From a virus (lineage: Duplodnaviria; Heunggongvirae; Uroviricota; Caudoviricetes): a stretch of 12,246 nucleotides of DNA. The DNA lies in the IMG/VR virus record IMGVR_UViG_2695420793_000011. One strand, written 5' to 3'. Under the pieces are notes generated by a model that did no database searches, had not been told where the DNA came from, and was given only the letters and a program-made list of their open reading frames with translations. Shown one piece after another: positions 1 to 4,894 of the stretch (position 1 is the first letter of the stretch; each line of letters begins with the position of its first letter). Both the position numbers and the translations under genes were made by a program.

Positions 1-220
1 AGAGACGCACGCGATAGCGTCCGTCCGGTACGATTTGCAGGTTGTCCAGTTCGGCAAGTTGTTGCTCTCCAAGCCAGACAGGTGGCACGTTATCGCCAGC
101 CAGTCGCCCGTCCTGTTCCTGCCACTGTTTCGCATGTGCCCACGCATCACTACCCGCAAAAATGATGACTTCCGTCATTTTGTCACGCGGCTGGTGTTTT
201 AAATTTGGCGCTTTTTTCAT
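1..220 (-). CDS. hypothetical protein, N-terminal 73 codons only; gene continues beyond window start
   Basis: Minus-strand ATG at 220-218 opens a frame reading MKKAPNLKHQPRDKMTEVIIFAGSDAWAHAKQWQEQDGRLAGDNVPPVWLGEQQLAELDNLQ... with E. coli-like codons and no stop before the window edge. The ATG overlaps the TGA stop of the upstream 99-aa ORF (ATGA), suggesting translational coupling. Not in the ORF track because it is open-ended. Function unknown. Confidence 0.45.
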   Translation of the reverse strand, partial: MKKAPNLKHQPRDKMTEVIIFAGSDAWAHAKQWQEQDGRLAGDNVPPVWLGEQQLAELDNLQIVPDGRYRVRL

Positions 221-516
221 TTCTGCTCTCTCCACGCGGCAATCATGTTTTTTAGTTCCTGTAGTTTTTTATCAACATCCATACATGACACATGGTTATT
301 TCTGGAAAGCGGGATTTCCCGCCTGAATCTGCTAATAAAGATCTCCACGTTCAGCGAACTAAGAAATGAATAGCCATCACGGATAAAATACACACGGTCA
401 AACATCAGTTCTTTTACCGTTACTCTGTTACCGTTCTTATCCAGATAAATAGCGCCGGGGATAATTTGGGGGTGTGCATAACCGCTGGCAGTCAAGCCAG
501 ATAAATACGTTCTCAT
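217..516 (-). CDS. hypothetical protein (99 aa), member of leftward small-gene operon
   Basis: ORF-track frame. It is in the same frame as the upstream 106-aa ORF, separated only by a TAA stop and two codons, and its stop overlaps the next start (ATGA). No family recognised. Confidence 0.5.
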   Translation of the reverse strand: MRTYLSGLTASGYAHPQIIPGAIYLDKNGNRVTVKELMFDRVYFIRDGYSFLSSLNVEIFISRFRREIPLSRNNHVSCMDVDKKLQELKNMIAAWREQK

Positions 517-522
517 GATTAT

Positions 523-843
523 TTATCCCCGATTTGAATCAGTATTCGCTTTCTTTATAGCATTTAATGCATCTGTGGCATTTTCAATGGTGCACCGTAA
601 CGAAATATCAAAATGTCCAAGCATTGCCAGTAACAAACCGATATTACCCATATCAATGCGCATGGCCTTTTCGTCATAGTCCTCATTTTCTGACGCATGC
701 CACATCAGGCTACCAATTGACGCAACAGCCATTGATATATTGTCAGTAGCCCCATCCGCAGCGGAATAAATCTTTTTAGCAATATCATGCTCACAGTTAA
801 AATGCGGATTAATCAGGTACTGGTAATTTGACATATCAGGCAT
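523..843 (-). CDS. hypothetical protein (106 aa), member of leftward small-gene operon
   Basis: ORF-track frame. Its ATG at 843-841 overlaps the stop of the upstream 67-aa frame (ATGCCTGA). No family recognised. Confidence 0.5.
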   Translation of the reverse strand: MPDMSNYQYLINPHFNCEHDIAKKIYSAADGATDNISMAVASIGSLMWHASENEDYDEKAMRIDMGNIGLLLAMLGHFDISLRCTIENATDALNAIKKANTDSNRG

Positions 844-1039
844 GGCACACCCCCTGACGAATACGGGCGGCGAATACCATCACGCAGCCAGCCGGGGATT
901 GCTGGCGTGCTTCCTGTTCGCTGGTGGCCACGATGTGAATCACGCGCGGTTGTGCGGTGCTCAGGGCGATAAAACGCCAGATGTATTTATTCAGGTTGTA
1001 CGAGTCCCGCCCTTGCGGGTGTATGGTATGATTTCTCAT
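836..1039 (-). CDS. hypothetical small protein (67 aa, MRNHTIHPQGRDSYNLNKYIWRF...), probable first gene of leftward operon
   Basis: This is the 3' portion of the 362-aa minus-strand track ORF. An internal ATG at 1039-1037 is preceded by GAGG about 8 nt upstream. The longer upstream extension runs through the AT-rich promoter region and antisense to better plus-strand genes. An alternative start at about 1132 is possible. Confidence 0.35.
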   Translation of the reverse strand: MRNHTIHPQGRDSYNLNKYIWRFIALSTAQPRVIHIVATSEQEARQQSPAGCVMVFAARIRQGVCHA

Positions 1040-1235
1040 AGCTGCCTCGATAATCTTGCTATCGTTGGTGGTTAGAAGCCCCGTTACTGCTCCTACAGTG
1101 CGGGGTTTCGTCGTTTCTGCACCTTGCATTAACAAGGTGTAAGTAACTTTATTTATAGGTGGCTTACATGTCAATGCTTTTATGTAAGACTTTTTATGTG
1201 TATATTGTCTTACACTTTCATTGAGAGGATTACAG
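1040..1235. promoter_or_regulatory. divergent promoter/operator region between the leftward small-gene operon and the rightward regulator-like genes
   Basis: AT-rich intergenic stretch with repeated TGTAAG(A/T)/CTTACA elements, including an inverted pair GTAAGAC...GTCTTAC around 1180-1215 and TTACATGTCAA at about 1164-1176. A short GC stem (CCCCG...CGGGG) at about 1080-1107 lies in the leftward leader. Confidence 0.45.
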
Positions 1236-1541
1236 ATGGCTACAGGTTCAAAAAACGCAAAATCACAATCACTGACAGCTCGGATCCCGCATGATGTTAT
1301 TGAAGGCATGGAATCCGTAAAACTGGACGGTGAAAGCAACGCCGGATTCATAGTAACCGCCATGCGCGGTGAAATCGCCCGCCGCCAGGCAGAAGGAAGC
1401 GGAGAAAACCTCCTGGTTTCTTCGCTCGATGCCCTAGCGCAGGTGGAAAAAATCGGAGTCAAAGCCGCCGAGGAGATCGGGCAACTCGTCACCGTCGCGC
1501 GTGAAGAACTCCAGCGACGCAAGGTCAAAGAGCAGGAATAG
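1236..1541 (+). CDS. small acidic protein, putative DNA-binding regulator of the island (family not confirmed)
   Basis: ATG at 1236 is preceded by GAGAGG at 1224-1229. Codon usage is E. coli-like and a strong intrinsic terminator follows the transcription unit. The N-terminal segment SLTARIPHDVIEGMESV is reminiscent of ribbon-helix-helix-type regulators, but this is an impression only. The track's longer start at 1221 lacks an SD. Confidence 0.5.
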   Translation: MATGSKNAKSQSLTARIPHDVIEGMESVKLDGESNAGFIVTAMRGEIARRQAEGSGENLLVSSLDALAQVEKIGVKAAEEIGQLVTVAREELQRRKVKEQE

Positions 1542-1598
1542 CCACTATCAGCGCCATAGTTTGAGGAACGCAGGCGCATTGCTTTACAGGACAGCACC

Positions 1599-1778
1599 AT
1601 GAGCGACACAGAATCAACCAAAACACCATCACCAACTCGTAAGAGACGACGCAAAAATATAGCGCATGAACATGAATCAGAAAGATTCGCACCTTGTTCG
1701 TTTGCTCTTGAGAAATTCCTTAAAGAGCACAGGAAAAAGCTCTCGTTGCAAACCTTGGAACGAACCAAATCTGACTGA
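1599..1778 (+). CDS. possible small basic protein (59 aa, MSDTESTKTPSPTRKRRRKNIAHEHESERF...)
   Basis: Found by manual translation; below the ORF-track size cutoff. It lies between the 1236-1541 gene and the plus-strand terminator. Weak SD and rare codons (AGA, CGA, AGG, ATA) make it uncertain. Confidence 0.25.
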   Translation: MSDTESTKTPSPTRKRRRKNIAHEHESERFAPCSFALEKFLKEHRKKLSLQTLERTKSD

Positions 1779-1845
1779 TCACATTGCCCACCAGCCGCAA
1801 ATGTGGCATTGTTGGCGATGCGTTCAAGTTTAGTGTGTATCCATT

Positions 1846-1877
1846 GGCGACCGCCCCCGGTCGCCTTTGTTTTATAT
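1846..1877 (+). terminator. intrinsic terminator for the rightward island transcription unit
   Basis: Perfect 8-bp GC-rich stem GGCGACCG / CGGTCGCC with CCCC loop (1846-1865), followed by TTTGTTTTATAT. Confidence 0.6.
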
Positions 1878-1892
1878 GTCATATGCTCCCCT

Positions 1893-2117
1893 TTACGCTG
1901 CCTTACCTGAATTAACGCGGTCACGGCTTTGCACCCAGTCCATAACTTCGGAAAGCAACCAGCCTACAGAACGCCCCCCAAGATTACGGCGAGACGGAAA
2001 GCCCCCTTTCTTCTCCAGTTCGTAGCGTGTAGTACGGCTGACGCCTGTTAACTTACGACATTCATCCTCACGAATTACGCGATCTGTTAGTGATTGAAAT
2101 TGTGTATTTTGATTCAT
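1893..2117 (-). CDS. alpA: AlpA-family phage/island transcriptional regulator (excisionase-like HTH)
   Basis: 74-aa translation with segment LTGVSRTTRYELEKKGGFPSRRNLGGRSVGWLLSEVMDWVQSR, matching the AlpA/Xis-type motif (GxSRsTiY...G.FP....lG.R.v.W...ev..W). Position downstream of a P4-type integrase is typical. Confidence 0.7.
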   Translation of the reverse strand: MNQNTQFQSLTDRVIREDECRKLTGVSRTTRYELEKKGGFPSRRNLGGRSVGWLLSEVMDWVQSRDRVNSGKAA

Positions 2118-2220
2118 AAAAACACCCTCGAACGTAACCGAACAAGGGCATCTTATTTACCATAGCAGTTGGTGCAATATTGGAAAAATAAACTTTATTC
2201 TAATTTATCGTTCTCCATGA

Positions 2221-3075
2221 TTAATTTTCATTAGATAAAATTTTTCTTATTTTTTCTAAAGAATCGCTGCGCATTATTTTTTCTAAGAAGGGTTTTACAG
2301 TCTGAACAATAGCAAAGGTGTCCTTTTCACCATCAGGATACAAAGATACGGCAAGCACCCCTAATGAAATTTTTCTATCTGTAGACAACTCCCAAGATAA
2401 TAAGTCAATTAATGGGATTATCTTATAATCAATAATTTTACGTCGTATGCTCTCCCAACTTCCTGCAATTGGTTTGTCTGGCTCAACAATTGAAAGTTCA
2501 CTACGCCATTTTGGTAATAGTTTTGTAAACGCTTCAATCAACTCATCATCTCTGTTATGTAGTAAGTCAACAGAAACAAGCATATTATCTAATGTATCAG
2601 AAAGGAGATTCACTGGTTCACGCATCACAGCCCAAAACATCCCATTATCTTCTGATATTAAACTTCCAACCATCTCATTATCTATGATGATTGGTTTATC
2701 CTTCCAATATCCTCTTTCCGCAGTCAGTTTATTAATCATTGATATATCAAACCTTGTTACAGGTTTAATTCCATCATCATAACTTAGCTCAATTAACTTC
2801 GGTTGCACTTTATGGTCATATTCTTTTTGTTTATCACAAAACCAATCGTCTTCTTTCAGCTCTCCAAATGGATCCCCGTAATTATTATGCAACGGGTATT
2901 CAGCACCAAACATAAATCCATATTCAGGCATCTCAGAATGTTTCATTGTTAAATCATCTTGTCGCCAATATAATTGGCGAAATAGATCTTTATCCGACAA
3001 GTTTTCTAGGCAATCATATTTGCCTAAATCAAATGACTTTGGTAAATCTTTTTTACTATTTACTTTTTTCGTCAT
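2221..3075 (-). CDS. hypothetical cytoplasmic protein (284 aa), AT-rich cargo gene between integrase and alpA; function unknown
   Basis: Long uninterrupted frame in visibly AT-rich DNA. Its ATG at 3075-3073 overlaps the integrase TGA stop at 3074-3072 (ATGA). No transmembrane segment or catalytic motif recognised by eye. Confidence 0.65.
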   Translation of the reverse strand: MTKKVNSKKDLPKSFDLGKYDCLENLSDKDLFRQLYWRQDDLTMKHSEMPEYGFMFGAEYPLHNNYGDPFGELKEDDWFCDKQKEYDHKVQPKLIELSYDDGIKPVTRFDISMINKLTAERGYWKDKPIIIDNEMVGSLISEDNGMFWAVMREPVNLLSDTLDNMLVSVDLLHNRDDELIEAFTKLLPKWRSELSIVEPDKPIAGSWESIRRKIIDYKIIPLIDLLSWELSTDRKISLGVLAVSLYPDGEKDTFAIVQTVKPFLEKIMRSDSLEKIRKILSNEN

Positions 3076-4292
3076 TGTATCCCTCTCAATATCACAATAT
3101 TTTCATTATATCCTGCAATCATATCAAGACGCTCAACCCATAGATTCAGTGCGTCCCGTTTCGCCTGCAAATAGCGTGAATGGTTATAGGTTTTTTGCTG
3201 ACCTGGCATCTGATGCGCTGTGATGTGCTCCACGATATGCGGATCGACACCTAAATCATTCAGCATAGTTGTAAACGTGTGTCGGAAATCATGCAGCGTC
3301 CAGTGTTCCTGCTTAAGCCGCTTATGCGCATTTCGTCCATATTGCGCCACCGTGGTATCTTTTTTCAGTTCGCCGAGTAATAACCCAGTGTGTGCGTTTT
3401 GCTCCACCAGCTTCTGAATGAACGGCAAAATACCATCAGGAATAGGTCGGAATATTGTTACCTTCGTTTTGCTGTGCTCTTTTGGCACTGTCCACAACAT
3501 TTCTTTCAGGTCCCATTCTTTGATCTCTGAAAGTCTGATCTCTGCCGTTCTGCACCCGAACACAATTAACAAGCGCATTAACGCACTGTAATAGGGAGCG
3601 AACACATCACCATCAATAGCGCGTAGAATTTCTTTTAGTTCGCTGTTGCTGTGCACTCTCTCGCGGATTTCTGCTCTCTTACCCACATCAGTAACGATCA
3701 AATCGTCCAGGGCGTTGCTAAACGCGTAGCGCCGCCTGCGGCAAAACTTTAGCGCCTGTTTGCATGTCTGCATGACATGGCCCGCTGCTACTGGTGCTTT
3801 TTTTCGTACGCGGTCAAAACATGCGATCCACTGCCTTGTATCACACTTATCAAGGGGAATTGCCCCAATATGGCAAATGATGTGCTTATCCATACGCTGC
3901 ACCAGCTTTATGTAATCTTTGCGGTTATCCTTCGCGTATTCCTCCAGCCAGTAGTTAATCGCTTCCTTCACCGTAACGGGTTTTAGTGCTTCCTGTACTG
4001 TGGCGCACAACTCATAACGGGGGTTTTTACCCTCAGCCAGCCATGCCCGGCACAGTGTGCGTTTTTCCCTTGCGGCTTTCAGCGACAATTCAGGGTAAGC
4101 CCCCAGCTTTAACCGCTCTGCGGCAACCTCACGGCCTCCCGTTCGGTACCGGAAATACCAGGTTAATTTGCCGCCCTTTGAGTGTTTAATCTCCAGCCCG
4201 CCCCCGTCGGAGTAAAAACGCTCTTTTTCTGCCTGGACAGCCGCCAATTTTTTTAACGTCGAATCGCTCAGTTTGTTTAGTGCTTTTCCCAC
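3072..4292 (-). CDS. int: P4-type tyrosine site-specific integrase
   Basis: 406 aa. The N-terminal arm-binding-type region (DGGGLEIKHSKGGKLTWYFRYRTGGREVAAERLKLGAYPELSLKAAREKR) resembles P4/CP4-57 integrases. The C-terminus has the HxxR box (HDFRHTF) and a candidate catalytic Tyr (KTYNHSRY). GTG start at 4292 with AGAGGA about 9 nt upstream. Confidence 0.85.
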   Translation of the reverse strand: MGKALNKLSDSTLKKLAAVQAEKERFYSDGGGLEIKHSKGGKLTWYFRYRTGGREVAAERLKLGAYPELSLKAAREKRTLCRAWLAEGKNPRYELCATVQEALKPVTVKEAINYWLEEYAKDNRKDYIKLVQRMDKHIICHIGAIPLDKCDTRQWIACFDRVRKKAPVAAGHVMQTCKQALKFCRRRRYAFSNALDDLIVTDVGKRAEIRERVHSNSELKEILRAIDGDVFAPYYSALMRLLIVFGCRTAEIRLSEIKEWDLKEMLWTVPKEHSKTKVTIFRPIPDGILPFIQKLVEQNAHTGLLLGELKKDTTVAQYGRNAHKRLKQEHWTLHDFRHTFTTMLNDLGVDPHIVEHITAHQMPGQQKTYNHSRYLQAKRDALNLWVERLDMIAGYNENIVILRGIQ

Positions 4293-4328
4293 TATCAGAT
4301 CCTCTTTTCAGTCCTCCAGCCTCAAAAA

Positions 4329-4352
4329 ACTGACCACACAACTGACCACACA
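4329..4352. repeat. tandem direct repeat (A)CTGACCACACA x2 immediately upstream of int
   Basis: Two 11-bp units CTGACCACACA at 4330-4340 and 4342-4352, 12-bp period. Followed at 4369-4386 by CGAACAAC x2 with 10-bp period, within an ACAA-rich tract. Confidence 0.5.
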
Positions 4353-4480
4353 TTTTGTTGAAGCTCTACGAACAACGACGAACAACAACAAACAAGAAAA
4401 CAGGATAATTTATTGTTTATCAAATACATACATAAACAACCACAAGCAACCCCGAACCACAAAAAACACTAAATGAGAAA

Positions 4481-4540
4481 ATACGGGTATTTCTCAGCCT
4501 TCACGCAGAAGGGCACCCCGAGTCGTTTGGTTGCGATGAT
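4481..4540 (-). ncRNA. 5' portion of the thiM TPP (thiamine pyrophosphate) riboswitch aptamer, truncated at the island junction
   Basis: The minus strand reads AACCAAACGACTCGGGGTGCCCTTCTGCGTGAAGGCTGAGAAATACCCGTAT, matching from memory the 5' half of the E. coli thiM leader including the conserved CUGAGA element. After ACCCGUAU the expected CACCUGAUCUGGAUAAUGCCAGCG is replaced by unrelated sequence running into int. Confidence 0.65.
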
Positions 4541-4621
4541 AAATCGCAGAGGAGGATGGTAATGTCCAGCGCACGCGTTGTAAACGAGGAAAAACGGCAG
4601 TTTTACAATCGCGTTAATAAA

Positions 4622-4894
4622 TTATTTGATATATGAATCCAGCACCTTCAGAACGACATCCAGATCTTCTTCACGTTTTAGCTCATCCCCCTGGTGAACG
4701 ATGTGTTCCGTCAGATGACCTTTAATCACTTCCCGTATCAGACCGTTTACCGCGCCACGGATAGCAGCAATCTGTTGTAAAACTGCAGCGCATTCGTGCG
4801 GCTCGTCGAGCATTTTCTTGAGCGCCACGACCTGGCCCTGAATCTTACTGGCACGCGCTTTCAGTTTCTGTTTATCACGGATTGTATGAGACAT
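4622..4894 (-). CDS. rcnR: RcnR, Ni/Co-responsive transcriptional repressor (CsoR/RcnR family)
   Basis: 90-aa translation recognised as RcnR ([52 protein letters not shown]...), divergent from rcnA. Confidence 0.9.

Follow-up and report, generated by a model that had tools for sequence, protein, structure and literature searches.

The stretch of DNA examined here (hereafter the window; 12,246 nucleotides, one strand, IMG/VR virus record IMGVR_UViG_2695420793_000011, Caudoviricetes) carries an integrase gene, int, downstream of a thiM thiamine pyrophosphate (TPP) riboswitch of which only one part is present. We find that positions 1-4494 of the window are the left part of EcCI224, a phage-inducible chromosomal island (PICI) of Escherichia coli, and that the truncated riboswitch is the left attachment site (attL) of this element. 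The original prediction, made from the window alone, held that int might be transcribed by read-through from the host thiM promoter without control by TPP. We regard such read-through as physically plausible, and the arrangement that would permit it as probably a by-product of the insertion site.

The truncated riboswitch is the left attachment site of EcCI224

The window is 100% identical in sequence to E. coli strain Ecol_224, in whose genome a 10,609-bp island sits between rcnR and thiM. The attachment (att) block AGAAATACCCGTAT occurs there as two fully identical copies 10,609 bp apart (Ecol_224 locus L001 13872-13885 and 24481-24494; direct-repeat family D14), and the empty site of K-12 has a single copy, which lies inside the thiM TPP aptamer. 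Aligned to RF00059, the intact K-12 aptamer of 97 nt reaches 71.2 bits. At the far junction of the island (attR), AGAAATACCCGTAT is followed by the remaining part of this aptamer (P4, P5 and the P1 3' strand), the expression platform and thiM-thiD. It had been stated earlier that the 3' sensor half of the aptamer is gone, and this is indeed the case on the window side, where 50 of the 97 nt are left; a functional TPP sensor consists of the P2/P3 and P4/P5 arms closed by P1, and none is present upstream of int. An Rfam scan of the window with a threshold as loose as E<=1 gave no match to the TPP family, since the fragment is too short, and the riboswitch was recognised through the comparison with K-12. 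In that comparison, positions 4481-4640 of the window agree with the K-12 rcnR-thiM intergenic region at 160 of 160 bases, and on the way from rcnR to the integrase gene a 140-bp host intergenic stretch comes first.

The element itself has been catalogued as PICI EcCI224 in Table S1 of Fillol-Salom et al. (2018, ISME J, PMC6092414), with the entry CP018948.1, 1961620-1972242, 10.6 kb, att AGAAATACCCGTAT and the location 'frmR-thiM'. This entry and the island of the window agree in strain, accession, coordinates, size and att block. The criteria of the same study for a Gram-negative PICI describe the island well: it carries int, a Phage_AlpA gene and a primase gene (phrog_864, 3.1e-192), all on the minus strand in L001, and with 10,609 bp between its att direct repeats it falls within the size class of about 10-15 kb for elements devoid of tail and lysis genes. 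Its cargo, as annotated by PGAP, Pfam and PHROG, comprises int, DUF6387, alpA, an Icd-like gene, a primase gene, a protease-capsid fusion and a small terminase subunit, the last two being its only structural genes. Helper-phage induction, excision and packaging would be expected of EcCI224 by virtue of its listing among the PICIs of that table. The integrase has the two-domain organization of the P4-type tyrosine integrases, with an N-terminal arm domain (Arm-DNA-bind_3, PF13356, 1.9e-17, residues 8-94) and a C-terminal catalytic domain (Phage_integrase, PF00589, 8.1e-17, residues 216-374) whose match spans positions 5-170 of the 172 in the profile. The protein sequence shows the HxxRH and C-terminal Tyr motifs, PGAP calls the same gene in the identical Ecol_224 genome, and the N-terminus is conserved among relatives.

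A junction of this kind could in principle have been left by a deletion, or be an error of assembly, beside an unrelated integrase gene, a reading that draws on the bare look of a truncated aptamer in a single window and on nothing more, and whose probability we consider negligible. The 14-bp repeats are exact and the lost half of the aptamer turns up beside thiM at the far junction, which together rule out a deletion remnant. Furthermore, the identical junction with int is present in 76 of 5426 complete E. coli genomes (~1.4%), the element is catalogued in the literature, and in 6 Salmonella loci whose integrases are 67-74% identical the crossover falls at exactly the same base, with int 129-222 nt downstream of it and in the same orientation. 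The description of the riboswitch as truncated therefore holds in so far as only its 5' half is kept, but what it suggests of decay does not: the aptamer has been split by the site-specific integration of EcCI224. The same junction appears on 9 IMG/VR contigs, and variants in SMS-3-5 and an O114:H49 strain share the left end but carry a full capsid-forming module. The thiM riboswitch site is intact in 4728 of the 5426 genomes. Searches of species-representative genomes with the integrase protein and with the attL junction pattern found nothing, the element being absent from representative strains.

We conclude that the P4-type integrase recombines within the 14-bp AGAAATACCCGTAT inside the aptamer. 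After integration, the thiM promoter and the P1-5'/P2/P3 half stand at attL, upstream of and co-oriented with int-DUF6387-alpA, and the P4/P5 half, the expression platform and thiMD are placed at attR. In many respects this conforms to known systems. The order int - alpA - primase - packaging, all in one direction, is that of the Gram-negative PICIs (PMC6092414). The integrase shares the combination of Arm-DNA-bind_3 and Phage_integrase with that of P4, as EcCI224 shares with P4 the presence of repeated, putatively arm-type sites on both sides of the core, and in P4-type islands at tRNA and transfer-messenger RNA (tmRNA) genes int likewise adjoins att, reads away from it and closely follows a structured-RNA target in the same orientation. 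Elements integrating at tRNA genes bring along a copy of the displaced 3' end, which keeps the target intact. EcCI224, in contrast, shares only 14 bp with its site and leaves the target as two non-functional halves, and that target is a cis-regulatory mRNA leader rather than a gene for a stable RNA.

Since both the element and its att block had been catalogued before, the scope of the present findings is modest. New are the recognition of the att site as a riboswitch aptamer that stays split after integration, and the use of this site by a second integrase family. The word riboswitch has 0 occurrences in PMC6092414 and its supplements, which make no mention of an att site inside a TPP aptamer, of a split aptamer or of a thiM promoter before int, and within open-access text we found no literature that places this att site, or that of any integrase, within a riboswitch. 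Whatever the transcripts at this junction may show, a riboswitch aptamer can serve as an att site, as the genes of tRNA, tmRNA and 4.5S RNA do.

Transcription from the thiM promoter towards int

The candidate thiM promoter (Table 1) is the highest-scoring sigma-70-like site of the interval, with a position weight matrix (PWM) score of 10.2, and its Salmonella counterpart lies at the same position (TTTACA-17-TATGCT). Transcription of thiM would start near 4549, and a second candidate -10 element, TATCAT (4541-4536), likewise lies upstream of the crossover. The thiM promoter is regarded as constitutive. The distance from the end of rcnR to the thiM -35 hexamer is 38 nt, and a pattern scan of the minus strand between 4556 and 4622 found no terminator-like site after rcnR, so that transcripts from the Ni/Co-regulated rcnR promoter could also enter the thiM leader and int.

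Between the riboswitch fragment and int no canonical terminator is present, in agreement with the earlier claim. The pattern scan found none on the minus strand over 4293-4622. The minus-strand fold that had been proposed as a check, carried out here on 4270-4550, was unremarkable (z = -1.1) and had no GC-rich hairpin with a U-tract. The terminator discriminant (d-score), whose formula was reportedly set out by d'Aubenton-Carafa et al. in 1990, was at or below -30 for every hairpin of the interval (best -30.2), whereas a control terminator from another part of the window reached +27.2. The leaders of the Salmonella relatives were also without terminator-like sites. Two individual candidates were considered and rejected, namely a terminator made by the junction itself, in which the P2-P3 arm (-9.4 kcal/mol) is followed by island sequence UAUUUUCUCAUUU (d-score -59, rejected as canonical), and the hairpin of the core inverted repeat (d-score -35). 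The gene follows the aptamer fragment on the same strand after 188 nt (from 4481 to 4292), close to the 190 bp first estimated. This island arm contains 19 C, 50 G and 83 T, and, in what was a test of composition only, every 78-nt window over it had a C/G ratio of 0.26-0.73, contrary to the C-rich, G-poor stretch of about 80 nt that marks a Rho utilization (rut) site; a leader so poor in C is expected to be a poor Rho substrate. The arm is also poor in promoters of its own, its best sigma-70 match (TTTATG-18-TAAATT) scoring 6.7, below the shuffle median of 8.4 and well below the thiM promoter.

Given a 257-nt leader with neither a terminator-like nor a Rho-loading feature, transcripts from the thiM promoter, and perhaps also from that of rcnR, would most likely reach int at some level. 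They would also be blind to TPP. A Rho target has been described within the first 34 codons of thiM (PMC5499598), and this target, the P4/P5 half and the stem that sequesters the Shine-Dalgarno sequence and AUG are all found on the 3' side of the crossover and at the opposite end of the island, so that a transcript entering int escapes TPP control, as the original prediction had it. In the model PICI EcCICFT073, int is not controlled by AlpA, yet AlpA alone triggers int-dependent excision (PMC6092414), so that Int has to be on hand already in the resident state. We lean, if only slightly, towards the reading that the arrangement is incidental and that some TPP-blind read-through from the thiM promoter enters int-DUF6387, where it would add to a weak island promoter and not be required. 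The nature of the junction, the splitting of the aptamer, the lack of canonical terminators and the make-up of the leader are shown by the sequences. We infer that read-through occurs and contributes to the Int supply, helping to provide the basal Int that Gram-negative PICIs need before AlpA-triggered excision, in an element that would not depend on input from a host promoter. Were this so, the resident state of the satellite would be wired to a host housekeeping promoter, and its Int supply and DUF6387 expression would be set by the host and not by the element.

The shared orientation of int and the thiM promoter should not be over-interpreted. It follows from the fact that int adjoins attP and reads away from it, and the recurrence of co-orientation in every relative examined is accordingly no evidence of regulatory design; it is a structural consequence of the attP-int layout and not a designed circuit. 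A similar notion of read-through has been put forward for helper-embedded PICIs, for which Tommasini, Mageeney and Williams (2023, PMC10111431) advanced the hypothesis that the satellite integrase is transcribed by read-through from the target operon. Both are hypotheses, and they differ in that the helper-embedded elements target a late gene of the helper prophage, read-through being timed by the helper, whereas the target of EcCI224 is a housekeeping leader from which input would be continuous.

Several considerations weigh against effective read-through, or against a need for it. In E. coli strain 536, chromosomal int::yfp fusions gave no detectable signal for five of six P4-type islands (PMC7286903). 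Islands of the P4 type are commonly found downstream of tRNA genes. If those of strain 536 are so placed as well, strong upstream genes would usually fail to drive int by read-through. RNA polymerase could be blocked by Int and IHF bound to the arm, or by H-NS on the AT-rich DNA, and the P2-P3 arm followed by UAUUUUCUC may form a weak composite structure that acts as a partial terminator (score -59). Uncontrolled induction of PICIs has been reported to harm the cell (PMC6092414), and no terminator-like site was found on the minus strand between DUF6387 and alpA, the PICI inducer gene (1893-2221), so that strong read-through would risk harmful self-induction. Two further points speak against dependence on host input, namely P4, whose int has its own promoter, repressed by Int and Vis and provided with an IHF site (PMC7286903), and relatives with the present module, which works there although host transcription cannot reach int. 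In the PICIs at the fis site and others, the integrases are ~55% identical to that of the window and the same 4-nt overlap of int and DUF6387 is found, along with alpA ~110 nt downstream and an island arm built in the same way, with tandem 11-mers before int. The fis-site elements lie at the 3' end of fis (core TACGGCATGAAC...), with int pointing away from yhdJ and antisense to the fis fragment, and in a Serratia island with this module two host terminators precede the core, so that int is shielded from host promoters. With these layouts, host read-through into int is impossible at the fis and Serratia sites.

These observations lend themselves to a different explanation, in which int is insulated and transcribed only from a weak, Int-repressed promoter in the island arm, as in P4, and the thiM promoter yields a short dead-end leader RNA. 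The autoregulation of P4 int, the silence of the 536 fusions and the danger of strong transcription continuing into alpA are all in its favour. So are the relatives at the fis and Serratia sites, which have no host promoter able to feed int and must therefore have an int promoter of their own in the homologous arm; relatives also retain a -10-like element, TATGAT or TAATGA, at a constant position in the AT-rich centre of their arm. In the window, however, this element is degenerate (TTTGAT) and the arm has no promoter above the shuffle median, and the absence of any terminator or rut-like stretch means that a protein roadblock has to be assumed for the insulation. We consider this explanation possible but doubtful.

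The opposite view would be that the arrangement is adaptive, the clade targeting the aptamer in order to place int-DUF6387 under a TPP-free host promoter, with thiMD transcribed in exchange from the island end. A constitutive thiM promoter would then have been selected as the chief driver of int in the resident state. Such promoter capture would agree with an arrangement that is invariant in E. coli and Salmonella islands of different cargo, with an att region depleted of sigma-70-like sites on both arms, with a crossover exactly between the sensor arms that removes TPP sensing and the expression platform from the int side, and with the comparable cis read-through hypothesised for helper-embedded PICIs. 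Shared integrase specificity alone nevertheless explains the invariance, and the same module functions at sites that lack host input. Furthermore, no promoter directed outward to thiMD could be found in the last 370 bp of the island (best PWM 4.7, none by consensus scan), a stretch that follows a terminator-like hairpin (L001 14281-14256, minus; region L001 13790-14281). One copy of the element (L013) sits behind the remnant of another island instead of the native thiM promoter, and an unrelated second island type, described below, rebuilds the riboswitch and does not exploit its loss. Adaptive promoter capture appears to us quite unlikely, and we retain the incidental arrangement with some read-through as the preferred reading.

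A second integrase family at the same riboswitch

In strain c1-17 a 13-kb island of an unrelated tyrosine recombinase occupies the same thiM riboswitch (L011 16108-17578 and 29215-29311). Its integrase, of 435 aa, has PF00589 as its only domain and gives a BLASTP E value of 0.24 against the integrase of the window. The identity block of this second type (type 2) is ~46 bp long, and the island carries its own P1-5'/P2/P3 half-aptamer, in which P3 is different but still base-paired. Having been supplied with this half, thiM keeps a complete aptamer, and PGAP annotates two TPP riboswitches at the c1-17 locus. The host aptamer there ends 69 nt upstream of the type-2 integrase gene, which is co-oriented with it and downstream of the thiM promoter. 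The two island types are therefore alike in using the same riboswitch as att and in placing int just downstream of the thiM promoter and host aptamer in the same orientation, and they differ in their integrases, in the length of the identity block and in the fate of the sensor, which is rebuilt by type 2 and left broken by EcCI224. The aptamer has in this way been recruited twice by unrelated integrases following opposite strategies, one that breaks the sensor and one that brings a spare half-aptamer to rebuild it.

Copies of type 2 with the integrase are found in 43 genomes at >=80% coverage, and 69 genomes have any match. Integrase-less remnants of its right end are more widespread, occurring in ~431 of 5426 E. 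coli genomes, including O157:H7, O55:H7 (L012) and E. coli B. The two types also meet at a single locus: at L013 350-540 (IMG/VR UViG 2703718798_000014), the remnant of a type-2 island ends on its right in a rebuilt riboswitch, and a PICI of the window type has inserted there in tandem, so that its int sits behind the remnant.

At the far end of EcCI224, thiM and thiD are annotated as intact, yet integration has separated them from their promoter and from the aptamer's 5' half. The hybrid leader at attR scores 33 bits, against a TPP gathering score of 54. Folds of the hybrid and native thiM leaders predict the same 3' domain in both, so this comparison is uninformative. With thiMD separated from promoter and half sensor in ~1.4% of complete E. 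coli genomes and in some Salmonella, a thiamine phenotype is predicted, which would be reversible if the island excises. A more far-reaching proposition combines these elements. It holds that the thiM riboswitch constitutes a separate class of att site, to which two unrelated integrase families have turned independently, and that integration by the EcCI224 clade amounts to a reciprocal rewiring, in which int-DUF6387 would come under a constitutive, TPP-blind thiM promoter (Int being always on hand and excision gated only by AlpA) and thiMD would be left without promoter and sensor, with thiamine physiology changed, through auxotrophy or unregulated expression, until excision. Taken as a whole, we regard this proposition as unlikely.

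Organization of the junction and neighbouring genes

The positions of the features discussed are collected in Table 1.

Table 1. Features at and around the left junction of EcCI224, in window coordinates.
Feature	Position	Strand	Basis or remark
rcnR (Ni/Co repressor), host gene upstream of thiM promoter	4622..4894	-	Pfam Trns_repr_metal 1.5e-20; PGAP in Ecol_224
thiM promoter candidate TTTACA-17-TACCAT	4556..4584	-	-35 4584-4579, -10 4561-4556; consensus scan 9/12
5' 50 nt of the 97-nt thiM TPP aptamer (P1 5' strand, P2, P3, CUGAGA)	4481..4530	-	K-12 alignment to RF00059
att identity block AGAAATACCCGTAT (crossover region)	4481..4494	-	14-bp direct repeat
Island arm of attL (P' arm), untranslated leader of int	4293..4480	-	U/G-rich, C-poor, AT-rich centre
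70-nt block, repeated near the other island end	4326..4395	-	direct-repeat family D2, 94% identity, L001 13949-14018 and 24326-24395
Tandem 11-mers TGTGTGGTCAG x2	4330..4352	-	24 nt upstream of int Shine-Dalgarno sequence; read from sequence
int, P4-type tyrosine integrase, 406 aa, GTG start	3072..4292	-	Pfam, PGAP; Shine-Dalgarno sequence AAGAGGA 4306-4300
DUF6387 gene, 284 aa	2221..3075	-	Pfam DUF6387 4.7e-31
alpA-like regulator/excisionase gene, next downstream	1893..2117	-	Pfam Phage_AlpA 4.8e-16; PHROG excisionase and transcriptional regulator

The island arm has a regular layout, in which the core is followed by two repeat-like blocks around the AT-rich centre, the tandem 11-mers TGTGNGGTCAG, the Shine-Dalgarno sequence and the start codon. 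This architecture is kept in the 6 Salmonella relatives (alignment A1), the comparison between genera covering the int-side (P') arm. The 11-mers are held in an invariant frame among relatives, and their single variable base (T, A or C) is equal in both copies of an island and differs between islands, which suggests co-evolution with a DNA-binding protein, either the arm domain of Int or AlpA. The 70-nt block includes the 11-mers, and the direct orientation of its two copies means that they would lie on both arms of attP; by analogy with the arm sites of lambda and P4, we take them to be putative arm-type Int-binding sites.

At the Salmonella attL (L003 2788-2816; L004 and L009 2765-2793) the junction creates a sigma-70-like site, TTGTGA-17-TATTTT, with its -35 element in the host P3 loop and its -10 element across core and island. 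It has a PWM score of 9.05, close to that of the thiM promoter (9.93), and the E. coli junction is without it. A further integrase, 67% identical to that of the window and belonging to a cluster of 858 sequences, lies beside the McaS small-RNA gene, downstream of abgR (L005 2641-3001). This location corresponds to the 'lysR-smrA' PICI site of Fillol-Salom 2018, and the att listed for it, CGGTGTAGTTAATGGTGTAGTTAATT, is a tandem repeat just upstream of int.

The 284-aa gene that had been noted as overlapping int proves to encode a DUF6387 protein, its ATG overlapping the int stop codon by 4 nt, and it is likely to be translationally coupled to int. The arrangement int-DUF6387-alpA, with the 4-nt overlap and alpA ~110 nt downstream, recurs in Serratia and in Citrobacter/Enterobacter islands that occupy other att sites, a conservation of gene order that marks DUF6387 as a conserved partner of these integrases and not as random cargo. 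PADLOC returned no defence-system match for the protein, and its AlphaFold model (pLDDT 80.6) had no fold match in the PDB.

Three minor observations concern the remainder of the island. An open reading frame of 362 aa (836-1924, minus strand), which lacks a Pfam match and is overlapped on either strand by genes of the PGAP annotation (Icd-like 836-1039, YlcI/YnfO 1236-1541), is unlikely to be a real gene. A GC-rich sequence of 80 nt occurs twice (91% identity), once after the capsid gene and once after the primase gene (L001 15398-15477 and 17934-18013). Last, GGTGAACAGT iterons together with inverted repeats are present downstream of the primase gene (L001 18167-18400), and this iteron field looks like the replication origin of the island.

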